Counted from the stretch's first letter, positions 9,605 through 43,478 are shown. The stretch: 64,000 nucleotides of DNA from a virus (IMGVR_UViG_3300035137_000026:1-64000); one strand, 5' to 3'. Translations and numbers: made by a program. The notes: generated by a model from the letters alone, not told the origin.

Positions 9605-10726
9605 TTACATATCTTCCTCAAGGCGGAATCCAAGACCAACTGGGAACTCTGGAATTCCGTCCTTGCTTAGGCTTTGATACTTTACTGTAATCATCTTGCC
9701 CATGTGTTCTTCTGCTGTCTCGAACCACTTTCTCTTCTGTTGGAGTGTGCCCTTCGGGACTACGTCCACTGTCTGGTCTTCTCCTACCCTACAGACCCAG
9801 ATTACACAGTTCTCGAACTTACCTTCACCATCCTTAAACCCTATGATTTCATACTCAGCGTCCTGGAAGTCCTTGTACTTAAGTAGTGCCCTAGATCTAT
9901 TAGCTAGCTCATATGTTCCTTCGGGTAGGCGGATGATGGTCCCCTCGAATCCATTCTGCGTTGTACCAGAGTGGAACATCTCAAAGTCTTTGTAACTTAA
10001 GAGTGAGGTGGTGATGACCGATCTGAGTATGGTGCCATCTACATTAAGATGTGCAAGATGCTGGACTCTCTCCTGGAATGGCTGATCTAGCTTGTCGAGC
10101 ATGAATGTATCGTAGATCCAGAATTCTAGATCTTTGCTACAGTATCCTGTGTCTTCATATTCTTCTTTTCTGTGTTTCTTGACCAGGGCGTTGATGTCCT
10201 GTCTCATTAGCCTATGGATGTAGATCTCGCCGTCTAGTACTTGGCCTGGCAGGAGGACTGCCTCTAGTGCTTCAGATAGGTGGGCTACGTGGTATTCTTT
10301 GCCGCCTCGAGAGAGAAGCTGAACCTTGTCTCCATTCCAGCGGGCTAGACAACGTATCCCATCTAGCTTTGGTTGGGCATACACATGGCCATCCAGCATA
10401 TGCTCCCGCTTTGCTCTTGCCATCTTTGTCATGTCATGTGCTAGCATTGGGAGGAAGACTAGTTCATTCTCTGCCTCTTGGATGGACTCGAAGTATCCCT
10501 TGTCCTTCTTCTTGGTCCACATTGACTGGGCTGTCAGCTTAGCCTGCTCTTCAGGTGTAGTCTCATTCTTTTTTCCGATGCTTTTGCCTTTAGCAGTCTT
10601 GCTACTGGTCTGCATCTTGCCGTCTACTTTGCCATGTTCAGTAATGATTTCAGCGTCTTCGGTACGGAGCGACCACTGCTGGAAGCTGCCGTTCTTGTTC
10701 TTCTTATAGAGTGTAGGAAACTGCAT
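9605..10726 (-). CDS. lig: ATP-dependent DNA ligase with WGR-like N-terminus
   Basis: QPKLDGIRC, LDGEIY, EGTIIR, LLKYK, C-terminal OB fold (ITVKYQ...PEFP). Confidence 0.92.
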   Translation of the reverse strand: MQFPTLYKKNKNGSFQQWSLRTEDAEIITEHGKVDGKMQTSSKTAKGKSIGKKNETTPEEQAKLTAQSMWTKKKDKGYFESIQEAENELVFLPMLAHDMTKMARAKREHMLDGHVYAQPKLDGIRCLARWNGDKVQLLSRGGKEYHVAHLSEALEAVLLPGQVLDGEIYIHRLMRQDINALVKKHRKEEYEDTGYCSKDLEFWIYDTFMLDKLDQPFQERVQHLAHLNVDGTILRSVITTSLLSYKDFEMFHSGTTQNGFEGTIIRLPEGTYELANRSRALLKYKDFQDAEYEIIGFKDGEGKFENCVIWVCRVGEDQTVDVVPKGTLQQKRKWFETAEEHMGKMITVKYQSLSKDGIPEFPVGLGFRLEEDM

Positions 10727-11494
10727 TTATATCTCCTCAGTATGGACTATAGCGCCTCGTCTGTGCTCTGTTAGATAGCCTGGCTGATTGGACACTAGCT
10801 TAGTTTTGCTTAGCTCATGGGTCGCTGTCACATGGTCATGCCCGTATATCCATAACTTAGGACCATGGTCAATTACTAAGTTAGAAAGGTCAGAGTGGAA
10901 ACCATACTTTATACGGCTATACCTGTAGTGCGGTGAGCATGTTATAGATGACGGGCTGTGATGCGTGACTACTACGGTTTTGCCCTCGAACGGTTTCTTC
11001 AGCTCTTCCTCGAGCCAGTCACGACAGGCCTCAAATTCTGCATGGTAGTCTGTGTGGTTAAAGGTAACCAAGATTGGCCTCTTCTTCCTCATGGGCAAGC
11101 CTTTTACTCTTATCTTAACAAAGTCGTTAAGGCCATGCTGCACAGACATTGCATGCATAGGATTAGATAGGTCTGACCATAGTGTAGTACCTAGAAATCT
11201 GACCCCATCTATTATATGGGACTGCCTCTCTAGCAGTACAGCATCTGGCACTTTGGCTACCTGATTTCTATAATTCTCCCTTATGTCTGGAAATGTGTGC
11301 CCATAGTATTCATGGTTCCCCATGACATAGATGAACTTGGCCTTGCTACTAGCTCGAAGACAGAGTAGATAGCTTTTCAGAAGCTTAGGACACACATGAA
11401 TGTCGCCGGCTAGTATAAGAACGTCCACATCTGGAACTGGAATGATGTCGTCACACATCTCACAGTGTAAGTCACTTATATATCCTACTAGCAT
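10727..11494 (-). CDS. calcineurin-like metallophosphoesterase
   Basis: SDLH, LAGDI, GNHEYY, VVVTHH, WIYGHDH. Confidence 0.9.
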   Translation of the reverse strand: MLVGYISDLHCEMCDDIIPVPDVDVLILAGDIHVCPKLLKSYLLCLRASSKAKFIYVMGNHEYYGHTFPDIRENYRNQVAKVPDAVLLERQSHIIDGVRFLGTTLWSDLSNPMHAMSVQHGLNDFVKIRVKGLPMRKKRPILVTFNHTDYHAEFEACRDWLEEELKKPFEGKTVVVTHHSPSSITCSPHYRYSRIKYGFHSDLSNLVIDHGPKLWIYGHDHVTATHELSKTKLVSNQPGYLTEHRRGAIVHTEEI

Positions 11495-11629
11495 CCTGTC
11501 TCTCCTTCTTAAGGTACTCGGTGGCTTTGACTGGAGGATTACTACAGCTTTCACAGTACCAGTTGAACTGGTATCCGTCGAATTCTCCATGGAATGTGTT
11601 GCCGCTACATTTGAGGCATTCTGCGTTGC

Positions 11630-13072: not shown

Positions 13073-13678
13073 CTAAACCTTAATGTACATGTTTGGTACT
13101 TCATCTACAAGCCAGACACCATTTTCTGAGAGATAAAATCTATACCCGTTTTGTACCATTGGCAAGGTATTAATTTTTAGGACTACCGTTTGTCCTCCAT
13201 GCCGGCGACCAACCTCTTGTGCTGTCTCGAGGTCTGCTGATAGGTGAACATGGTGTCTCTTCATCTTGTTGAGGCCACCAGTCATCTTTATCTGCTTGAA
13301 TCTCTCCGCTGTTGTACCATGATATAGTACTGGAGGTGGCATCTTGTCCTCAAAGGTCATACCAACATCAATACTATGTCCTTGATTCGCACGAATCTTC
13401 CTCTTGTCATCATTATAGGAGAACCGTTGCTTGTTATTCTTTTCTACTACACGATCTAAATCGTTATGTGAGATGGCTAGGCCATACTTGGATAGTTGGT
13501 TGAGTAGTGTTTCCACATCTGCCCAGCCACCCTTCTCTAAAGTTATTCCTATCTTCTCAGGCTTGTGGCGTAGGAGAAGAGAGAGAAACTTACTTGTCCT
13601 TTTATCCTTATGAAACTGCTCAGACTTAACTTGCTTCTCATGTCTGTAGCGCTTCATATATTCTTCATTCAGATCCAT
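13073..13678 (-). CDS. kptA: RNA 2'-phosphotransferase (Tpt1/KptA)
   Basis: SKFLSLLLRH, KQRF, IRANQGHS, LYHGT, RHHVHLS, SENGVWL. Confidence 0.95.
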   Translation of the reverse strand: MDLNEEYMKRYRHEKQVKSEQFHKDKRTSKFLSLLLRHKPEKIGITLEKGGWADVETLLNQLSKYGLAISHNDLDRVVEKNNKQRFSYNDDKRKIRANQGHSIDVGMTFEDKMPPPVLYHGTTAERFKQIKMTGGLNKMKRHHVHLSADLETAQEVGRRHGGQTVVLKINTLPMVQNGYRFYLSENGVWLVDEVPNMYIKV

Positions 13679-13921: not shown

Positions 13922-14462
13922 TTATTGATTTGGGTTTTGTAAGGCAGATTCTTTAAGTATCTTAAGGGACTTCACTATCTCATTGTTTGTATCTGCGTGT
14001 ATATAATCATTGCCGACAGTAACATGTACTTTTGGAAATAGTTTTCTACCTATTGTTTTTATTACTGTTTCTTTCCAAGAGATATTAACAACCCTTCTTC
14101 TAGGACCAATTGTAATGTGTCCAATTTCAGATGTTATTCTGAACTATGGTTTATCTAGGCAGCATGCTTCAGAGCAATATTCATTTGGAATTTCTTCTAT
14201 ATAGATTGGAGTGAGGCCAGCTTGGATAAATGACGACTTGAAAAAGACGAGATTTCTCTTTGTTCTCTTTAAATTGAGGATTTAATTTAACAGTTGCTTT
14301 TCGTAGTGCAGATGTAATGGAGTCTCTTGCTCTATTGAGTAAGCGATATAGGTCTGGGTCGTTCTTAATTGAATTATAATCTGGAGCATTAATTCATATT
14401 TTAACGCCATAAATGCCTGTGGTATCACTAGTCTCTGATTTTGTTGCTGTTGTGTATTCCAT
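13922..14462 (-). pseudogene. disrupted hypothetical gene (TGA 14394-96, T-run frameshift near 14240, TAG 14144-46)
   Basis: Protein-like translation across the lesions: ...PIYIEEIPNEYCSEACCLDKP*FRITSEIGHITIG... Confidence 0.6.
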
Positions 14463-14474
14463 TGATTTTCCTTA

Positions 14475-14549
14475 AGCCTCTAGCCGGACTCGAATCGAGC
14501 ACCTCGTGGTTGGAAGCCACGCATGCTAGCCATTAAACACCATAGAGGC
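14475..14549 (-). tRNA. tRNA-Gly(TCC)
   Basis: Loop CTTCCAA; T stem imperfect (A53). Confidence 0.8.
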
Positions 14550-14552
14550 AAA

Positions 14553-14664
14553 AGAGATGTTGGGTTGAATTGGCAACCATATCCATATACAGACATGAAC
14601 TTACCACAACCCCCGGGTCGACAAGGACTCTCGTCCAAGCTGTATCGCTGCGGGGAACATCTCT
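14553..14664 (-). ncRNA. 112-nt structured RNA, three-way junction
   Basis: Terminal 9-bp AGAGATGTT/AACATCTCT; CCCCG/CGGGG arm with GGAC-GAGA-GTCC; TGGTAA/TTGCCA and CATGTC/GATATG arm. Confidence 0.6.
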
Positions 14665-14666
14665 AG

Positions 14667-14776
14667 TACTCCAGACAGGATTTGATATCTGCAATATAGA
14701 GACACAACAAAGTTACTCTACCACTTAGAAAGCCTTAATAAGACAATGTGCTGCGTCTAACTTCCGCCACTGGAGT
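14667..14776 (-). ncRNA. tRNA-like RNA with 40-nt anticodon loop
   Basis: ACTCCAG/CTGGAGT acceptor, Leu-type D arm, GCACA/TGTGT stem, T arm. Confidence 0.7.
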
Positions 14777-14784
14777 ATAAATAA

Positions 14785-15066
14785 CTAGTAGTGTGCTATT
14801 ACGCCAAATACTCTAACGGTCTCTAAAAGCATCTCCAGTTTTTCGTTCCTACACACTTGAACTGGATTAAGTCTATGGCTTAGCCCATGAACATTGCATA
14901 TCTGCATTACTTTTAGAATTGTACTTGTTTTTCCCGTAAGTAGTTACTACTAGGGTGTTGTAGTGGCTCCCGTTCGCTTTTCATAGATTAGCTATGCCTC
15001 TTACTATCACTAACTACTTTCGTAACTCTTTAAAGGATGGCCGCTTCTAAGTCCACCTCCTACTAG
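14785..15066 (-). ncRNA. 23S rRNA GTPase-associated-centre (H42-H44) mimic with 220-nt insert
   Basis: CTAGTAGGAGGTGGACTTAGAAGCGGCCATCCTTTAAAGAGT-[220 nt]-GCGTAATAGCACACTACTAG matches 23S positions about 1051-1108 as recalled. Confidence 0.8.
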
Positions 15067-15070
15067 ATTG

Positions 15071-15197
15071 TACGGGTGGCAGGATTTGAACCTGCACGGT
15101 AGCTTGGTAATCACTCGTAAAGAGCGGACTCGAACTGCTAGAGCTACCTAACTCCTGCCACATACCAAGTTGTGTTTAACCATTCCACCACACCCGT
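15071..15197 (-). ncRNA. tRNA-like RNA with about 55-nt insert in the anticodon arm
   Basis: ACGGGTG/CACCCGT acceptor, Leu-type D arm, CTTGGTA/TACCAAG stem, GCAGG-TTCAAAT-CCTGC T arm. Confidence 0.75.
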
Positions 15198-15206
15198 ATA
15201 ATAAAC

Positions 15207-15296
15207 GAGCTAGCACGTCTGACTAGAGAGGCCACCCCCGTACCAGACTGTATCCAAATTTGTGACCCGGTTAAAGGTAAGATTAGATGCTAGCTC
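15207..15296 (-). ncRNA. structured RNA, motif copy A
   Basis: GAGCTAGCA/TGCTAGCTC closing stem; CAGTCTGGTA...CTAGTCAGACG. Confidence 0.5.
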
Positions 15297-15368
15297 AATG
15301 GGCATATTTATCTTGAGGGTTCCCTCTTGCACGTGCACTCAATTCCCTGCCCAGGGTGTTGATAAGTT

Positions 15369-15426
15369 AACTGGTGCGTCTGACTAGTCGACTTTTACCA
15401 GACTGCAGTCCACCTGGGCACCAGTT
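15369..15426 (-). ncRNA. structured RNA, motif copy B
   Basis: AACTGGTGC/GCACCAGTT closing stem; same CAGTCTGGTA...CTAGTCAGACG motif. Confidence 0.5.
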
Positions 15427-15428
15427 TA

Positions 15429-15501
15429 TGGGCGGTGAGAGACTCGAACTCTTGCTGTCTGCCTTGTAAGGGCAGCATTTTAGCCACTAAATTAACCACC
15501 C
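15429..15501 (-). tRNA. tRNA-Val(TAC)
   Basis: CTGCC-CTTACAA-GGCAG anticodon arm. Confidence 0.85.
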
Positions 15502-15635
15502 TTTCCCAGAGATAGATTTACTTCTTAAGCTTCTGGCGTGCTCTTCTCCTGCGATTCCTAATAGTGTTACTTTTACCTTGCCGGCCTCCATCGGGGGCTG
15601 CGGCCCCGTTTCGGCTAAGCAACCCATTCACGGCA

Positions 15636-22362: not shown

Positions 22363-22416
22363 CCACGTGAGCAGTTTAGGCATTGAGGATGGCTGCTTCT
22401 AAGCCAACCTCCTGGT
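22363..22416 (-). ncRNA. second 23S rRNA H43-like element
   Basis: ACCAGGAGGTTGGCTTAGAAGCAGCCATCC followed by a diverged H44 (TGCCTAAACTGCTCACGTGG). Confidence 0.7.
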
Positions 22417-22424
22417 TGTCTTAG

Positions 22425-22508
22425 TGCGACCGGAGAGATTCAAACTCTCAAGCCAATAAGGGCACTAGGTTCTAAGCCTAGTGTGTATACCAGCTCCACT
22501 ACGGTCGC
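22425..22508 (-). tRNA. tRNA-Leu(TAG)
   Basis: CTAGG-CTTAGAA-CCTAG, long variable arm. Confidence 0.92.
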
Positions 22509-29554: not shown

Positions 29555-31195
29555 CTAGATACGAGCACTAACAAAATCGCTGATGATGTTAGGTGTCGCC
29601 GAGTCAAAGCCTGCGATGTCCATTGAGTTTGCATCCTGAGGATCACAAACTGTGTAGTGTGTTGCTGTGGTTGCACAAACAACCAGCTTGGAGTCAATTC
29701 CTATCTTCTGACGGTACTGCTCCAATGCCACACACGGATGGACACGGCCACTATGGGTATCGTTGTCTGTGTAGATTACGAACCCATCGGCCTGGATCTT
29801 ATTCTTCATGGCCCAAAGCATCGGCATGGCACAATTTGTACCACCCCAACCGGTGCTGTTAGCCTTATGCATGGCCTGCTTTAAGGTATCCTTCCGACTG
29901 ATTTTCAGGTCCTTGAACTGGTGCGTGAAGCCCATTGTGTAGCAGTCATGCTTCTCGGTACGTGCTGTTACCATAGACATTGCACATGCAACCATGCGTG
30001 GGGTTAGGCCACTGATGCCCATCACACCGCCACCTAGGCTGCTTCCCATAGATGGTGATACGTCTAGACCGAGAATCATTCTCTTGCCTGTTGGTTCTAC
30101 GTTCCCGAAGGATGTGTAGAATGCATCGTCTAGGGCATCTAGAATGGAGCGTACTGGTTTCCAGCTTAGACTGCCTCTAAGGCCATGACCCTCTTCATAT
30201 TGCTTGAGAGCAATGAGTACCGAGATTGGGTGGATTCTGGAATGCTGGATTGCCTCCTCATTCCCGAGCTTTTGGCAGACCATGCGGGCAGCTGAGCTGT
30301 TCTGCTTAAGCAGCCCAATGCTAGTCATCTTACCCAAGTTCCGCACCATAGCCATTATTGGCATACCCTCGAGCATAGCTTCCCAGACATTTGCACTGTT
30401 CAGCATCTTAGTTGGTACAACCTCACGTGGTAGGTTGTTAGCCTTGATTAGCTCAATGGCTTTCTTCTCACTAGCATTCTTGATTGCATTGCATGCCTTC
30501 AGGAATGGCGGGAGGATAAGTCCCTTATACTTATGGTTCCTGTCAGCTACGTTGCCTTCCTTGTCGGGGCGTACATCACCACAAACCCATTCGTAGATGG
30601 CCTCATGCTTAGCTGATTCTGGAACTACGTGAGCCTTGCGGAGAGCATCTCTTGCGCTCCAGCCTTCACGCTGCTTGTACTTTGCAACCTGGTAAGCTAG
30701 CTTCTCGGCTGGCTTCTTGTTAAACCAGTTTGCCACGGCGTTACGCATGTTTGTACCCCAACCACCACCTAGACTCTTACGGAACTCTAGGAACTGGTAG
30801 AGGTGCGTACCAATGCGGCACACCTTATGCAAGTTGGCGAATGCAGCCTTCCTGGTCTTCAGGTCTGGGCTGCAGCTTGCCATTGCTAGTACGTATACTG
30901 CCTGGTCATTCTTAGGAGCCCGACCATTGGTGGAGATCTCTACGACCTCATTGACCACTCTGACTCCGTCTTCTTTGAGGCAAGCCTCGACGTTTGTCAG
31001 GTTCTTTGTGGTAAGCTTACGCTCATTCACGTAGTAGGTCCCGCCTTCGGAACCTAGGATCAGGAACCTACGAAGCCTGTTCCACCTGTCTACTGAGAAG
31101 ACGTAGGCACCTTCAGAGTTTTTGATCTGACTGTCTCTCAGCTTTTCATGCTGGGGGACTCTCGTTTTGTCTGTCGCTCTCTTAAGGTAACTCAT
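29555..31195 (-). CDS. rsr: Ro60/TROVE RNA-binding protein with vWA domain
   Basis: RLRRFLILGSEGGTYY, RIGTHLYQF, KYKQREGWS.RD.LR..H, DVSPSM MIDAS, GGTNCA, YTDNDT. Confidence 0.95.
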   Translation of the reverse strand: MSYLKRATDKTRVPQHEKLRDSQIKNSEGAYVFSVDRWNRLRRFLILGSEGGTYYVNERKLTTKNLTNVEACLKEDGVRVVNEVVEISTNGRAPKNDQAVYVLAMASCSPDLKTRKAAFANLHKVCRIGTHLYQFLEFRKSLGGGWGTNMRNAVANWFNKKPAEKLAYQVAKYKQREGWSARDALRKAHVVPESAKHEAIYEWVCGDVRPDKEGNVADRNHKYKGLILPPFLKACNAIKNASEKKAIELIKANNLPREVVPTKMLNSANVWEAMLEGMPIMAMVRNLGKMTSIGLLKQNSSAARMVCQKLGNEEAIQHSRIHPISVLIALKQYEEGHGLRGSLSWKPVRSILDALDDAFYTSFGNVEPTGKRMILGLDVSPSMGSSLGGGVMGISGLTPRMVACAMSMVTARTEKHDCYTMGFTHQFKDLKISRKDTLKQAMHKANSTGWGGTNCAMPMLWAMKNKIQADGFVIYTDNDTHSGRVHPCVALEQYRQKIGIDSKLVVCATTATHYTVCDPQDANSMDIAGFDSATPNIISDFVSARI

Positions 31196-34817: not shown

Positions 34818-35076
34818 TCTTCATTTCGCTTTCTACGCTATTGAAAGCGTCCTTAATTGTGGTCTCTACGGTTCCAGCCATTGAGTCTAGGATAAAGTTC
34901 CAGTTATGGACAAAGACTGGATCAGAGTCATTCTCTACTGGTAGTCTGTTTCCTTTGAGTTGAGTGCAGACGAGCTGCATGCCGTCAAATAGGCCTTGAA
35001 GATACAGAGCGATCTGGTCGTGACTGAAACCTTGGCCTGACAGCTTCCTTAGGAGATTCGCAATGATTTCTTGCAT
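34744..35076 (-). CDS. hypothetical protein
   Basis: ORF track. Confidence 0.5.
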   Translation of the reverse strand: MQEIIANLLRKLSGQGFSHDQIALYLQGLFDGMQLVCTQLKGNRLPVENDSDPVFVHNWNFILDSMAGTVETTIKDAFNSVESEMKNELKKRNTESSPVDKEILPNSRND

Positions 35077-36245
35077 AGTGCTATCTCTTCTTCTGTGCCA
35101 GTATGCTTGCCTTCAGTATCAGATAGCTTAACAACAGGTAGCCACTTACTCTCTCCATATGGCTTGCAATGGCTCATCTTAATAACCATATTAAGTGGCT
35201 TAACGCCTTTAATGTCATTGGTAAGGTTGGTGCCAATGCCAAATGAGCACTTGATCCCTATGTTATCACATTCTTTCTTGAGTTTTGTGGCTACTAGTGG
35301 GCTCAGACTGTCTGAGAATACAATTGTTTTGGATTCAGGGCTGATTCCTAGCTCTATATAATGGTCTTTGACTCTGTGTGCAAAGGCGAATGGGTCGCCT
35401 GAGTCATGCCGTACACCGTCGAATAGCTTGGCGTACTTGGAGCCAAATACCCTAAAGAATGACCTGCTGGTGAATGTATCAGGTAAGGTAATTCCTAGGT
35501 TTCCGTGATATACGTCAACCCAGTGCTTGAGTGCCATATGGTTTGCTTCTTGGTATCCGTACTTGGCTCCATGAAACATGAACCATTCATGTGCCTGCGT
35601 TCCAATAGGTTTGGTAGCATATTCTTGAGCTAGGTGTAGGTTGCTGGTGCCAACAAAGTTGTCTGGTGCAGTAATGGAGTGAACATGCACAATACCGGCA
35701 TGGTGTTTGGCTGAGAACCTCCTGCGAGTGCCAAAGTCAGCATATGCTATGCCAGCCTTGGTAAGATCTTGTGCCTTCATTGCGGTACGGACCACTGCTT
35801 CTTGGATTGAATCTTCATCTGCTTTGGCTGTCATCCTGAAGTACAGCTCGGAGATGACTGCCATCAGCTTCACTTCCCATAGAATTGTGCGGTACCATGG
35901 ACCTTTGATCATAACCCACAATCTACCATCTGGCATGCAGGTGGCGTTCACATCTTTGTAGTTGTATTGATAACCTCTCAGGAAATCGATGAAAACTGGG
36001 GTTAGGAACGGGCAGGCTACTTGAAGCCAAGCTGCCTCATCATATGTGAGGTGCAAGTCTCCCATCATCTCTATCTCTTCCTTTAGCCGGTTAATAAACC
36101 CTTTTGGGAATTTTGTGTTCCCCCTATTGGTAAAGTTATAAATAGCTTGAGCATGTGGATAGCACTGGCATACAGCTTGGCACATGGTCAGCTTGTAGAG
36201 GTCGTCATCCAGCATGCTTTTAATGATTGGAGTGGCCGAGCCCAT
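35049..36245 (-). CDS. pncB: nicotinate phosphoribosyltransferase
   Basis: DDDLYKLTM, DFGTRRRFS, GTSN, GTQAHEW, GVRHDSGDP, FGIGTNL, VKLSD..GK. Confidence 0.95.
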   Translation of the reverse strand: MGSATPIIKSMLDDDLYKLTMCQAVCQCYPHAQAIYNFTNRGNTKFPKGFINRLKEEIEMMGDLHLTYDEAAWLQVACPFLTPVFIDFLRGYQYNYKDVNATCMPDGRLWVMIKGPWYRTILWEVKLMAVISELYFRMTAKADEDSIQEAVVRTAMKAQDLTKAGIAYADFGTRRRFSAKHHAGIVHVHSITAPDNFVGTSNLHLAQEYATKPIGTQAHEWFMFHGAKYGYQEANHMALKHWVDVYHGNLGITLPDTFTSRSFFRVFGSKYAKLFDGVRHDSGDPFAFAHRVKDHYIELGISPESKTIVFSDSLSPLVATKLKKECDNIGIKCSFGIGTNLTNDIKGVKPLNMVIKMSHCKPYGESKWLPVVKLSDTEGKHTGTEEEIALCKKSLRIS

Positions 36246-37782: not shown

Positions 37783-39162
37783 TTATTTTGCTTTCATATT
37801 CATGATTGGTTTTATCTGCTCAACCAGCCCGACTGTTGGAATAATAGCTTGCTGGATCTCTTCTGGGTTTTTGTATGCTTCCGGCGCTTCATCCAGTGGG
37901 ATGGCTGAGGTATAGATGCCGTTCATTGCTTTCTCGGCATCTTCTTGCTTTAGTATCTGCTTAGCTTTGGTGCGGCTCATAGCTCTACCAGCACCATGCG
38001 GAGCCGAGAAGTTCCAGGACTTTTCTGCCCATCCTGTACAGATCCAAGTACCGTCCTTCATATTGAACGGAATGATGACTTTCTCTCTGTAGGCAGCAAC
38101 GGCCCCCTTTCGGATTATGAGGTCCTTTGGGCTAATGTAGTTATGTACTGTCTCTACCTGCTCAAGTATTGATCTGCTAACCCTTTCGGTTGCAAGAAGT
38201 CTTGGTCTTAGCCTGTTCTGAACTGCTGGCTTAGGAACAATGTTGCTCAGGACATCCTGCATAATGGCAGCTCTGTTATGGGTAGCATAGCACTGGGCAA
38301 ATGCCATGTCGTATAAATAGTCATACATAGCCTTGCCCATAAGTGGTTCCAAGCCCTTCTGGCTAATGCCGCTAGTGATTCCAAGCTGTGCTCGTAGCTC
38401 TTGGATCTTCCTCTGGGTGTCTTTGGGTGATGTAGTCTTCTTGATTTGCTCAATCTGCTGCTGGTAGTTACCTTCCGTTGACTGCTTCTGCATTGCGGCG
38501 GCGAGTCTTTGGTGGTATTCGCAGACATTTTTGCCTAGCTGTCTTGAGCCGCTATGAACTATTACCCATAGAAGATCTTCGTTGGTTGATGAGATCCCTA
38601 TCTCGATGAAGTGATTCCCACCACCAAGAGTGCCAATTCCATTGAGTGCTCTTTGGAAGTCCTGTCCTATCTTGGCGCAAAGTGCTTGAAACCAAGTATG
38701 GTTGATCCTAGGTGGTTTTGGAGTGCTTGTACCAAACTTTTCACGCAACCTAATCCACAGTTGGTCCAAGCTTGATTGTGCCTCGGTGTAGAACTTGTGA
38801 CCGTCTTCGAGAGCATAGGTTCCGGTTGTATGATAATGTACTTCGAAACCGAATGGGATTCTGTCTCTGATTTGTTTATCTAGAGCGGCTAGATCCATGC
38901 CCTTCGGCTTCTGTATCTGGATACCGAGCATTCCACAGCCGATATCTACTCCAACCACGTTGGGGATAACCATCTCTGTCAGTGGCATAGTGAATCCAAT
39001 TACGGATCCTTTGCCAGTGTGGCAGTCTGGCATAATTCTGACTGGCTCAGTGAATGCCGGGTGGTTAAGCATGGTATAGATCTGACTAATACACTCTTGC
39101 TCTACATTCTCTTGCTTGGCAAAAATAATTGCCTTTGAGTATCGTCCCTGGATCTCGAACAT
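37783..39162 (-). CDS. rtcB: RtcB RNA ligase
   Basis: MPDCHTG, GVDIGCG, GTLGGGNHFIE, HSGSR, HNY, RKGA, PHGAGR, DEAPEAYK. Confidence 0.95.
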   Translation of the reverse strand: MFEIQGRYSKAIIFAKQENVEQECISQIYTMLNHPAFTEPVRIMPDCHTGKGSVIGFTMPLTEMVIPNVVGVDIGCGMLGIQIQKPKGMDLAALDKQIRDRIPFGFEVHYHTTGTYALEDGHKFYTEAQSSLDQLWIRLREKFGTSTPKPPRINHTWFQALCAKIGQDFQRALNGIGTLGGGNHFIEIGISSTNEDLLWVIVHSGSRQLGKNVCEYHQRLAAAMQKQSTEGNYQQQIEQIKKTTSPKDTQRKIQELRAQLGITSGISQKGLEPLMGKAMYDYLYDMAFAQCYATHNRAAIMQDVLSNIVPKPAVQNRLRPRLLATERVSRSILEQVETVHNYISPKDLIIRKGAVAAYREKVIIPFNMKDGTWICTGWAEKSWNFSAPHGAGRAMSRTKAKQILKQEDAEKAMNGIYTSAIPLDEAPEAYKNPEEIQQAIIPTVGLVEQIKPIMNMKAK

Positions 39163-39182
39163 TGCTTTATATCTCAACAGAG

Positions 39183-40028
39183 CTAAAACTCGAAGGCTGG
39201 TGGTAATGGTTCTGCGCCCTCGAAGATACACTCTACCCGGTTAGGGATACTAGTTAGCTTAGGAAACACGACCATCTCAACATCAGTTCGTTCGATTGTC
39301 ATGTTGGGGTTCTTTCGTGCATAGTGTTTGGGTGGAAGTTGTTCTATCTCTTCAGCTATGAATGGTCTTTTCCTCTTGACTCTCCTGAAGTAGGAGCCTC
39401 TCTTCTCCTGTGGAGAGTAATGGTTCCAGTTAATCCCATATTTTTGGAAGAGCATTTCCTGAAGCTCTGGTGTCTGCTTCCCTTGCATCTCCTGATGGGA
39501 GAACTTGCTTTGTGCCACTGCTAGGATGCTGTTTCTGGTGGCATCCAGCTCCCTCCAGATTAGACAGTTTACAGCCTCTGTGAGTGATGGTACCTGAAAT
39601 ACACGGCAATCGAAGGTAGCTGGCGGCTTGTGGAAGAATAGCTGTGCACGTTCGTTCATATCTGCTTTAACAGTTTTCTGTACTTCTATATTGAAGTAGG
39701 CTGTGCACATGCTTGCTAGCACACTATTCATCTTCTGGAGCTTGCCATCGAAGAAGATTTGGCTCTCTATATCGTCGCTGTAGAATATAAGGGTGATTTC
39801 ATCAGATTGGGTGTATCCAATAACAGCGCATGTCTCTTGTACGAGTCTCTTTGTGGTGATCTGCATCATCTCCATGAACTTGCTATCGAATGGGCGGTCT
39901 AGGCCTTTAGTCCATGTGTGGAATGCTCTCCCGTCGAGGCGGGCAATTATAGGCAGAAGTGGAATTGCTTTCATTGCCCAGTTCTTCTCGTAGAGCTTTA
40001 TTCTATCGCTAAGTGTTATCTTATCCAT
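39183..40028 (-). CDS. Thg1-like tRNA-His guanylyltransferase / 3'-5' polymerase
   Basis: RLDGRAFH, YTQSDEI, FFDGK..K, FDCR, WRELDATRNSI. Confidence 0.93.
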   Translation of the reverse strand: MDKITLSDRIKLYEKNWAMKAIPLLPIIARLDGRAFHTWTKGLDRPFDSKFMEMMQITTKRLVQETCAVIGYTQSDEITLIFYSDDIESQIFFDGKLQKMNSVLASMCTAYFNIEVQKTVKADMNERAQLFFHKPPATFDCRVFQVPSLTEAVNCLIWRELDATRNSILAVAQSKFSHQEMQGKQTPELQEMLFQKYGINWNHYSPQEKRGSYFRRVKRKRPFIAEEIEQLPPKHYARKNPNMTIERTDVEMVVFPKLTSIPNRVECIFEGAEPLPPAFEF

Positions 40029-40226: not shown

Positions 40227-40721
40227 TTACCTCCAACTGGTGTCGCCCTCTAGGGTATAGACGACAACCTCTACATCTTGGGCAAGGAGGGTTTCTTTGA
40301 TAAGGCCCTCTATGACCTGCCATGTGCCGCCTGCTAGCCCGCAACCAATACGGGGAATATGTACACTGGCTTCTTGTTGCTTAGCATGTGTGGCTAGCTT
40401 GTTAAGGCACTGGCGGACCCTGTCGTATCTGATTGGAGGGATGTTTCCGTAGGGCTTGGTGTCGTGTTGTCCGATCATGTTGCAGACGTAAGTGTCGTCC
40501 TCAACCTGGACAAGTTGTGTCATGCCGAGAGTAAAATCTGGCATGTCATCTGCACCTTTTGCCCAGTGGCGATAACTCTTCTCGGGAAGCTCCCACTTGT
40601 TTGAAAGGGCAACCACGAAGCCACGACCCCATCTGCCTTTGTTGTTGCAGATGTGTGCAATAATTTTGTTTCCGTCGCCTTGTGGCTCGAGAGTATCACC
40701 TGTTACGTACTTGATCGTCAT
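40227..40721 (-). CDS. macrodomain protein (Appr-1-p processing / ADP-ribosyl hydrolase)
   Basis: GD, HICNN.G.WG.GF, PRIGCGLAGG.W. Confidence 0.9.
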   Translation of the reverse strand: MTIKYVTGDTLEPQGDGNKIIAHICNNKGRWGRGFVVALSNKWELPEKSYRHWAKGADDMPDFTLGMTQLVQVEDDTYVCNMIGQHDTKPYGNIPPIRYDRVRQCLNKLATHAKQQEASVHIPRIGCGLAGGTWQVIEGLIKETLLAQDVEVVVYTLEGDTSWR

Positions 40722-42028
40722 TAACTGATCTCTTCTGGGTCGACGTATTCGTCGTTATTCTTAGCAATACCTTCTAGCTCACAGAACCAGAAGCTCTTAT
40801 ATTTGTAGTGAGTCTCTACATTAGGAGCTTCTACTCTGAGAACGATACCTTCTCTGATATGGTCAGTATCGAGTAGAGAATTCCCTTGGGATAGTTCCTC
40901 ACATAGTTCTAGTAACTTACTACTATCACCATCATAAATGAATGGTTCTTTAATCTGTGGAACTGTGTCTAGTCCTAGCTCTCTACAACGTGTAACCATC
41001 TGTGTCCATGGTAATTCAGTTACCTCTCTACCTGGACCAGTTCTGGTGATTCTGTAGACTGCAATCTTGTATGTTCCTGGGTCGCAACCATATTTGTACA
41101 CCATCTTGGTTCCATACTTCTTCTTGAGTTTGGAGTCTTTGATGTTGTGCGCACCCATAATCAGGGCACCATCTTCAGAGTACCCTACAATTTCGTAGTA
41201 TAGGGTTTCTCCATCTTGAAGTCCTATATCCCTGATTTTATTATGGATAGTTGCTCTGAATTGTTTACCAGAGTAGTATCCTCCGTCGTCCACTTGTTTA
41301 GGGTCCAGGACCACACGTCGGGAACCAGTGACGTACTTGTACTCGCTGGTCTTAAATTTCTCTCCAAATATTTTATTCCAGGTTCTCTTGAACCAACCGA
41401 GTTCCTTAACCTGACGAAGCTTTCCTGTGCGTGCAGAAGTACCATGTATCTTCTCAGAGATTGAGAGTATTGCTCCAGCTGGGATGAGGTCTACCATCAT
41501 CCTAAGCTTCTGTGTATTGAAGTGCTCACGGAAGTCTGGGAATGATTCCTTTAGGATTCTCTTTGAGCTGCGGCGATCCTTATTTGTCCCACTCCCCATC
41601 ATCTTTCTAGTAGCTGGGGTGTAGTACTTATTACAGATTGGCTTACCATTTAGCTCATCGATTAGGTCACCTTTGGTGAGCCTCTCTATATCAAAGCCAG
41701 TCCACTTGAGCATCTTTAAAGGAACCCAGTAGCCCATAGACATTTCTTTACGAAACCTTTGTGCTCTCACACGTCGGTTGTCATCAAAGAATCCAGCCTT
41801 AGCTTCTGGGTTGGCATTTAGGTGTGTGTGCCTATGTAAGTTATTTCGCTGGCACATCTCCAAGCTTAGCTGTCCGTCTTCAGGAAAGAAGATGCCTAGC
41901 GTGCCTTCTACTATATCTGTAGAGATGATAACTTGATGCCCAGCGGCAGTACCCAGCATAAGCCTATCGGCATTAGAGTGAGATCTTATGTTCACGATAG
42001 GTGTAATAATTGCTTTATAGTTACTCAT
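40721..42028 (-). CDS. RNA ligase, DRB0094/Rnl2-like, with N-terminal OB domain
   Basis: HSNADRL, EKIHGTS, YYEIVG, REGIVLR, YKYK. Confidence 0.85.
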   Translation of the reverse strand: MSNYKAIITPIVNIRSHSNADRLMLGTAAGHQVIISTDIVEGTLGIFFPEDGQLSLEMCQRNNLHRHTHLNANPEAKAGFFDDNRRVRAQRFRKEMSMGYWVPLKMLKWTGFDIERLTKGDLIDELNGKPICNKYYTPATRKMMGSGTNKDRRSSKRILKESFPDFREHFNTQKLRMMVDLIPAGAILSISEKIHGTSARTGKLRQVKELGWFKRTWNKIFGEKFKTSEYKYVTGSRRVVLDPKQVDDGGYYSGKQFRATIHNKIRDIGLQDGETLYYEIVGYSEDGALIMGAHNIKDSKLKKKYGTKMVYKYGCDPGTYKIAVYRITRTGPGREVTELPWTQMVTRCRELGLDTVPQIKEPFIYDGDSSKLLELCEELSQGNSLLDTDHIREGIVLRVEAPNVETHYKYKSFWFCELEGIAKNNDEYVDPEEIS

Positions 42029-43129: not shown

Positions 43130-43478
43130 TGGTGGACCCATGTGGCATCGAACCGCAGTCCAAACACTATCCATGTATAGATCGTTACATGCTTAGTCTA
43201 CTCTATCCAACCATCTACCAGTGGATATCATAAATGGAGGTTTTGTCTTTTGTGTTTCGCCGCTGATATAAAGACAAACTCTGGCGGCTAGTTACATTAA
43301 ATTGCGCCTCGTCCAAATATGTAATCTCATTGGATTTGGCGGCTAGTTTGCTTACGCAGTGGCTAGCATAGGTTGTACATCGTTGCCGATTGTACTTTGG
43401 TTACTTTCTAATCTGGTACAACCATCCAGGGCATGCACTATAAGCTTCATTAGTACCCGTCGAAGCTATGTCAAGCCC
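43130..43478 (-). ncRNA. ssrA: tmRNA; tag (A)GNDVQPMLATA at 43352-43387
   Basis: 5' GGGCTTGACATAGCTTCGACGG; 3' GGTTCGATGCCACATGGGTCCACCA; G3-U70; tag ORF. Confidence 0.92.

Follow-up and report, generated by a model that had tools for sequence, protein, structure and literature searches.

A non-coding RNA in a phage tRNA array resembles the uL11-binding GTPase centre of 23S rRNA and belongs to a large family of phage RNAs

Why does a piece of 23S rRNA stand, split in two, among the tRNA genes of a phage, and is it a scrap of host rRNA, an interrupted gene or an RNA in its own right? The window analyzed here, a stretch of 64,000 nucleotides, comprises the first 64 kb of a complete virus record of 197,730 bp with direct terminal repeats, which derives from a wetland metagenome assembly. 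All of its 18–20 tRNA genes and its tmRNA gene are located on the minus strand. A 282-nt non-coding RNA element sits inside this tRNA array between two tRNA-like genes and on the same strand as all tRNAs. The original prediction had described it as a non-coding structural copy of the uL11-binding GTPase centre (GAC), and both its sequence and the conservation of its fold bear this description out. The coordinates of the element, of the parts of its insert and of its immediate neighbors are collected in Table 1.

Table 1. Features of the element and of the adjoining tRNA-like genes (positions in the window)
Feature	Position	Strand	Remark
Closing helix, 5' strand CTAGTAG (H42 stub, including G1055)	15060-15066	-	7 bp with 14785-14791
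GAC 5' half, 23S positions 1056-1090	15025-15059	-	H43 hairpin, 1082-1086 turn, H44 5' strand ending GAGU
Inserted arm, 220 nt, XacN1-type class	14805-15024	-	Class alignment and consensus fold
Arm base helix, 5' strand UAC	15022-15024	-	Pairs with GUA 14809-14811; classmates UGC/GCA (compensatory)
Class helix, 5' strand ACGG	14934-14937	-	Pairs with CCGU 14816-14819; columns 142-145/323-326; compensatory in 2/7
Conserved purine-rich loop GGAAAAACAAGUACAAU	14918-14933	-	Precedes the 10-bp helix
Class 10-bp helix, 5' strand UCUAAAAGUA	14908-14917	-	Pairs with 14822-14831; columns 164-173/311-320
Small class hairpin GGGCUAAGCC (GGGC...GCC)	14877-14886	-	Columns 226-236
UUUG linker, arm to G1091	14805-14808	-	Family comparison
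GAC 3' half, 23S positions 1091-1103, GCGTAATAGCACA	14792-14804	-	H44 hairpin loop GCGUAAUAGC, family signature A1101
Closing helix, 3' strand CTACTAG (C1104 and UACUAG)	14785-14791	-	Exact complement of the first seven bases
Upstream tRNA-like gene	15071-15197	-	Rfam tRNA 41.6 bits and fold; ends 4 nt before the element
Downstream tRNA-like RNA	14664-14776	-	Starts 8 nt after the element; 7-bp acceptor-type helix and T-arm-like hairpin

The two halves of the element align with 23S positions 1051–1090 and 1091–1108 as had been proposed. A 27-nt rRNA-type pattern for the 5' side, allowing 3 mismatches at most, has one match in the window where 100 shuffles predict 0.00, and the rRNA 3' 14-mer with up to 1 mismatch likewise has one match with 0.01 expected from shuffles; the match to rRNA is therefore not due to chance. 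The equivalents of A1067 (15048, within UUAGAAGC of the 35-nt 5' half) and A1095 (14800), both claimed to be retained, are present, and the H44 loop is of the GUAAUA type. The closing helix, said to be fully rewritten yet paired, forms 7 bp in this copy and covaries across the family described below. Compared with a true enterobacterial 23S rRNA (locus L062) the element differs at 1058/1080, a compensated pair, and at 1061, 1063, 1073, 1089, 1090 and 1101. The H43 pairs 1057-1081, 1058-1080, 1059-1079, 1062-1076 and 1064-1074 all form, with G-C at 1058-1080, and 1082-1086 is U-A. Two changes are unusual for the family: G1063A, which leaves an A·C mismatch with C1075, and A1073G, which results in U1065·G1073. 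Because the 1063-1075 pair is otherwise invariant, the window copy may be a weakened member. The single-sequence fold of the element (z = -1.0) is uninformative alone.

The covariance model of the complete LSU rRNA (RF02541) gave no match at the gathering score in the window, and genome-wide it returned only a 63-nt local match with 31.9 bits compared to a cut-off of 50. A second, contiguous GAC-like element is located at 22364-22426 on the minus strand, directly after a tRNA-Leu gene. It matches positions 1082–1155 of RF02541 with 31.9 bits (E 4e-9) and contains a perfect H43 half, GGUUGGCUUAGAAGCAGCCAUCC; its H44 is non-canonical, being replaced by CAAUGCCUAAACUGCUCAC, and the rRNA-type GCUCAC is kept. 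No relatives of this second element were found in viral contigs.

A search of other phages, suggested with the original prediction, revealed a large family. We scanned viral contigs with a 24-nt pattern of the 5' half that placed no constraint on the downstream sequence and obtained 75 matches, 74 of which are stand-alone phage elements; the remaining one (L062) is true 23S rRNA. The split architecture with an inserted arm was present in every element with sufficient downstream sequence (72–73 loci). A pattern of the 3' half containing GCACAC, which true rRNA with its GCUCAC does not match, hit at least 120 viral stretches. The 5' half was found upstream in 61 of 102 new viral matches to this pattern, compared to 1 of the 120 bacterial and archaeal matches listed; these are mostly chance matches, the one exception (L284) being a real element. 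After removal of duplicates 94 distinct members remained, with inserts of 45–338 nt (median 141). All are built alike: the closing helix, which covaries, is combined with the H43 half, an arm whose 4-bp base also covaries, the UUUG linker and GCGUAAYAGCACAC. We define the family by the closing helix, GGANGUNGGCUUAGAAGCAGCCAUCNUUUAAAGAGU, the arm with its paired base, UUUG and this last motif with A1101, all of which are found in the window copy. Carrier genomes range from 92 to 536 kb, 26 of them, including this phage, being at least 90% complete; each of the 47 others carries one element, and this phage carries two.

A blastn search of GenBank phages with the 1.3-kb element region found nothing. 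With a family member as query, blastn located the element in cultured phages, unannotated in the records examined: Cronobacter phage GAP32, Serratia phage BF, six Erwinia pEa_SNUABM phages, Kaldavass, Aeromonas phage 4_4572, Xanthomonas phages XacN1 and XbC2, and Pseudomonas phages pf16, Astolliot, UNO-G1W1 and Milchi. In pf16 the element fills the gap between tRNA-Asn and tRNA-Pro. When the rRNA covariance model was applied to relatives, matches were confined to the GAC domain (L018: 31.4 bits, model positions 1084–1153). The record of Paenibacillus phage Pd_22F (L307, MZ092003.1, ~83.9–84.0 kb) contains a true contiguous 23S segment near its end, also unannotated, which most likely stems from host DNA or from a join made in assembly and is not a family member. 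We conclude that the element belongs to a large phage RNA family of which we found no description.

The structure of the family is under selection. We assessed covariation in an alignment of 50 sequences, using the rRNA-derived structure together with the base helix of the arm and 500 shuffles for comparison. Paired cells made up 96.9% compared to 74.4% in the shuffles, and the covariation score reached 0.597 compared to 0.148, a value attained by 0 of 500 shuffles; with the partners slid out of register it dropped to 0.05–0.15. Changes on both sides were observed at 13 of 19 pairs. The closing helix (1051-1055/1104-1108) is 97.6% paired with such changes at all five of its pairs, its sequence being free, and the H43 stem pairs are 99–100% paired across the family. 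The two pairs of the core with the highest mutual information are 1058-1080, for which all four Watson-Crick types occur (UA 35, GC 32, AU 12, CG 6), and 1082-1086 (UA 62, CG 19, AU 4 of 94; mutual information 0.79).

Conservation was evaluated on members that had not been ascertained by the half in question. Positions 1091–1095 and 1098–1104 are conserved in 42–44 of the 44 members ascertained by the 5' half only, and A1101 in 43 of 44. With the same precaution A1067 is kept in 43 of 48 and A1095 in 42 of 44 members, and G1071, C1072, G1091-C1100 and C1092-G1099 are nearly invariant among members ascertained by the other half only. The linker reads UUUG in 33 and UUUA in 6 of the 44 members found via the 5' half alone. 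The family is distinguished from rRNA by GAGU at 1087–1090 (G1089, U1090), by A1101 and by the UUUG linker. Phages of enterobacteria, whose own 23S rRNA reads AAAGAAAGCG...GCUCAC, also keep G1089, U1090, A1101 and UUUG; the members therefore share ancestry and were not repeatedly re-copied from their hosts.

The insert had been predicted to be structured, and covarying helices were indeed detected at the level of arm classes. The first 4 nt of the arm pair with the 4 nt preceding the linker in 89, 87, 79 and 66 of the 94 members, compared to 38–58 in shuffles, and in the covariation alignment this base helix is 90.5% paired with double changes at 4 of 4 pairs. Since the ends of the arm pair with each other, the insert is a helical arm and H44 becomes a three-way junction. 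The arm of the window clusters with those of L008/L024, L009, L057, L155, L300 and phage XacN1. In its 10-bp helix (Table 1), which is also present in the single-sequence MFE fold, 3–4 of 7 sequences are changed on both sides at six pairs. Beyond the base helix nothing is common to the different classes, which are unrelated. The largest of them, with 23 members, shares a CACCCCGNAAACGGUAAGG module; its conserved 3' module, CACCCCG-NAAA-CGGUAAGG, is located about 15 nt before the UUUG linker and contains a tetraloop hairpin with a covarying stem. Members of this class include L003, L005, L007, L023, L030, L037 (phage pf16), L039, L050, L058 and L069. A second inserted hairpin is present in the 3' strand of H43, after A1077, in L086:818-975:-, L134:1057-1175:-, L302:3151-3424:- and L303:10316-10641:+, so the module tolerates expansion at two sites. 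Comparison of the arms with a true rRNA operon (L062, both strands) gave only scattered 10–15-nt matches with E values of 0.02–1; mimics of the sarcin-ricin loop or of other rRNA parts are thus absent from the arms.

U1090 presumably corresponds to the bulge seen in crystal structures below the G1091-C1100 and C1092-G1099 pairs, where 1072 forms a triple with 1092-1099. If 1090 is bulged in the phage RNA as well, the hairpin with the A1095 loop would remain closed despite the arm. One member (L027) has a compensatory U1092-A1099 pair, which fits such a closed hairpin. The family also represents a natural experiment on the much-studied GAC fold, indicating at which positions changes are tolerated and that H44 accepts a large arm between 1090 and 1091.

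We also analyzed the genomic surroundings of the elements. At 62 of the 94 loci tRNA genes are located within 2.5 kb, and all 340 of them are co-oriented with the element. A tRNA ends less than 30 nt upstream at 24 loci and starts less than 30 nt downstream at 27 loci. This close, co-oriented arrangement fits co-transcription with the tRNAs and release by tRNA-processing enzymes. A scan for promoters and terminators remained at chance level. In the metatranscriptome search an identical 151-nt contig at 15258-15408 was the sole piece of the region in an RNA library; it falls into a 230-nt non-coding gap (15198-15428, minus strand) between tRNA-Val and the upstream tRNA-like gene. The other matches were 35-nt pieces with 2–3 differences, which represent true rRNA from other organisms. 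None of these contigs covered the element, so that the lack of spliced joints among them carries no weight.

The anticodon region of the upstream tRNA-like gene is enlarged by about 52 nucleotides, among them a T-arm-like GCAGUUCGAGUCCGC. Its downstream counterpart was called neither by ARAGORN nor by Rfam. Given the nearby genes for Ro60, RtcB and Tpt1, these two RNAs could be Y-RNA-like molecules or intron-bearing tRNAs. Genes for RNA repair and quality control are interleaved with the tRNA array, all on the minus strand (796-2295, 9605-11590, 13073-13678, 29555-31195, 35049-36245, 37783-39231, 40721-42028 and 43130-43478). The set comprises a CCA-adding enzyme (PolyA_pol head and HD), an ATP-dependent ligase, a metallophosphoesterase, the RNA 2'-phosphotransferase Tpt1/KptA, Ro60 (TROVE and vWA), NAPRTase, RtcB, a second RNA ligase and tmRNA. 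Tpt1 lies 1.1 kb downstream of the element; among the relatives of the same arm class that were checked, L024 and L300 also have Tpt1. In XacN1 (L306, AP018399.1, 150.2–150.6 kb) the gene immediately upstream of the element is annotated as 2'-5' RNA ligase.

We consider it slightly more likely than not that the element is a processed, trans-acting imitation of the GAC, which would bind uL11 of the host, divert factors or toxins that target this site, or do both. A stable RNA of about 282 nt would be transcribed with the tRNA array, and the enzymes processing the neighboring tRNA-like genes would release it. Its two ends would fold into the three-dimensional GAC module, consisting of the H42 stub, H43 with A1067, the 1082-1086 turn and the H44 hairpin with A1095; the arm would leave H44 between U1090 and G1091 via the 4-bp helix and UUUG, giving rise to the three-way junction. 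Such an RNA would imitate the stalk base in trans and be neither a part of the ribosome nor an intron. The isolated 58-nt RNA of 23S positions 1051–1108 folds alone, its tertiary structure depending on Mg2+/NH4+, and binds uL11 and thiostrepton at nanomolar concentrations and EF-G weakly. Host uL11 would be the most likely direct ligand of the phage RNA. Since 0 of 48 carrier genomes encode uL11, any uL11 partner would be that of the host. Binding of uL10, which had also been proposed, is unlikely, since all that remains of H42 is a short stub whose sequence varies.

Two modes of action can be envisaged for a trans-acting imitation of the GAC. RelA activation requires uL11, which is one of the ribosomal proteins that can be exchanged. 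The free RNA, or an RNA-uL11 particle, might draw exchangeable uL11 off ribosomes and blunt uL11-dependent RelA activation. Alternatively, the RNA might serve as bait for proteins directed at the site, for instance the translation GTPases or toxins that attack the GAC, such as Tre23, which ADP-ribosylates H44. Tre23, a secreted bacterial toxin, ADP-ribosylates H44 of 23S rRNA at nucleotides 1095–1098 and blocks EF-G (PMC8661411), which makes the GAC a proven target in bacterial conflicts. The decoy reading of the original prediction, comprising uL11 titration, damping of RelA and the absorption of rRNA-directed attacks, is plausible. However, most uL11 is bound in ribosomes, and the RNA would have to be very abundant to act as a stoichiometric sponge. 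A plain decoy also has no obvious need for an arm that is always present yet variable between classes. The arm may therefore carry the real function; it may stabilize the RNA, exclude some ligands or add a second function. A more specific scenario, which we put forward tentatively and regard as rather less probable, is that large phages of many lineages combine the stalk-base replica with host uL11 to form an off-ribosome particle intercepting a Tre23-like immune effector or the RelA alarm, the variable arm tuning its ligands. If true, this would constitute a new class of counter-defense, namely decoys of rRNA functional centres.

The main rival reading, which appears unlikely to us, is a different division of labor, in which the GAC module is a mere handle that recruits uL11 or docks like the stalk base and the arm is the working part. 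The arm would then present a site to which a protein of the phage or the host binds, or make contact with tRNA, tmRNA or enzymes of RNA repair. Such a role would agree with the arm being obligatory, no arm-less phage copy having been found, with the class-level covariation and conserved loops of the arms, including the module common to 23 members, and with the presence of Tpt1, RtcB, two ligases, Ro60, the CCA-adding enzyme and tmRNA around the element of this phage. The wide range of arm lengths and the unlikeness of the classes argue against one common arm function, and no partner gene is conserved: an all-against-all comparison of 2,213 ORFs within 5 kb of the 94 elements yielded no linked protein, the best cluster occurring at 8 of 94 loci. 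Tpt1 is encoded in 3 of 47 and RtcB in 10 of 48 large carrier genomes, plain tallies that imply no enrichment; the two enzymes are not general companions of the element.

It is improbable that the element is a cis-acting structured spacer of tRNA operons, in which a stable rRNA fold is reused for processing, insulation or stability and no translation ligand is involved. The strict co-orientation with tRNAs and their close abutment would be expected of a spacer, but about a third of the members are located away from tRNAs, and a genome with dozens of tRNAs usually has a single copy of the element. A spacer would likewise have no need for the near-invariant A1067 and A1095 loops and the bases of rRNA tertiary contacts that are kept across very different phages.

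The original prediction had noted boundaries reminiscent of a group I intron: the insert follows a U, ends in G and can form a UAC-GAAA-GUA hairpin. All three features are present, but the hairpin is peculiar to this copy, and the relatives use a long-range helix instead. A self-splicing (group I-like) or protein-spliced intron, whose removal would leave a contiguous mini-domain of about 62 nt, is very improbable. rRNA introns exist in nature and this phage encodes RtcB and other RNA ligases. Nevertheless, no group I or group II model matched positions 14300-15600 at E<=10 or six other members at E<=1, and the inserts of some relatives (45–62 nt) are too short for a ribozyme core. The insert ends pair mutually, covary and are followed by the conserved, unpaired UUUG, which corresponds neither to P1/P10 nor to a bulge-helix-bulge; none of the insert starts (UACG, GGGA, AGAG, UGCG) is complementary to the GCGU on the 3' side. 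There is no insert-less allele among the 74 stand-alone phage elements and RtcB is absent from 38 of 48 carriers. We therefore rejected both a group I and a bulge-helix-bulge intron.

The family data already refute the idea that the element is a neutral, captured scrap of host rRNA or an assembly artefact. Contaminating pieces of rRNA do occur in phage records, as L062 and Pd_22F illustrate, but here the flanks are phage tRNA genes instead of rRNA, the region is spanned by a single 11.9-kb contig in a DNA run (which may itself be the source of the assembly), and the same architecture recurs, with compensatory changes and with signatures unlike host rRNA, at 94 distinct phage loci as well as in cultured phages.

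Returning to the trans-acting imitation of the GAC, binding of uL11 or diversion of factors or toxins would amount to a new viral way of manipulating or protecting translation and would hint at undiscovered host attacks on the GAC. As the element is present in cultured phages of tractable hosts (Pseudomonas putida phage pf16, XacN1, GAP32, BF and 4_4572), the question is directly testable.

The original prediction knew of no described phage RNA of this kind, and neither Rfam 15 nor the literature we searched offered one. Rfam was scanned at the gathering threshold over the whole window, at E<=10 over 14300-15600 and at E<=1 over six relatives, which returned only tRNAs, tmRNA and sub-threshold LSU matches; no family fitted, the GOLLD, ROOL and group I models proposed for this check included. 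No description of a phage RNA mimicking the GAC was found in the literature searched. The translation-related genes and RNAs known from phages include tRNAs, tmRNA and a few ribosomal proteins, and decoy RNAs are known as well; to our knowledge no faithful copy of a functional centre of rRNA that is under selection has been described. A survey of structured RNAs in phages reports no rRNA-like candidate (PMC10690425), and the genome paper of XacN1 makes no mention of 23S rRNA.

Group I introns in LSU rRNA genes resemble the phage arm in that they are inserted into a conserved rRNA helix, after a U and ending in G. In contrast to them, the arm has no catalytic core, can be as short as 45 nt, has paired ends and lacks intron-less alleles, and its "exons" are not an rRNA gene. 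Other phage or bacterial non-coding RNAs, often found beside tRNAs, are the tRNA-like Y RNAs such as the Ro60-bound YrlA, GOLLD, ROOL and the pseudo-ToxI decoy of phage PhiTE, and some such RNAs of phages are reported to work through mimicry or as decoys (PMC4201824, PMC3475682). None of them imitates a functional centre of rRNA. The covariance models of Y RNA, GOLLD and ROOL did not match here, and the closing helix has no conserved Ro60-type site. Leaders of ribosomal protein operons (the L10 leader, RF00557, and others) are likewise RNAs that imitate a protein-binding site of rRNA off the ribosome. They are cis-regulatory 5' UTRs of cellular genes with a loose likeness to rRNA, whereas the phage element is a near-exact copy; it is not upstream of any conserved gene and no leader model matched.

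The closest counterpart is the bacterial 23S GAC itself, comprising the top of H42, H43 and H44 (E. coli 1051–1108), which is the minimal uL11- and thiostrepton-binding RNA. Both have the same secondary structure and nearly the same sequence, with covarying 1058-1080 and 1082-1086, the juxtapositions U1060·U1078 and G1056·A1103, and A1067 and A1095. They also share G1071, C1072, G1091-C1100 and C1092-G1099, which we take to form the tertiary triples. Unlike the 23S GAC, the phage element is free-standing in a tRNA array, its H42 is a short helix of free sequence, A1101 replaces U, positions 1096 and 1097 vary, and an obligatory arm of 45–338 nt followed by UUUG is set between 1090 and 1091.
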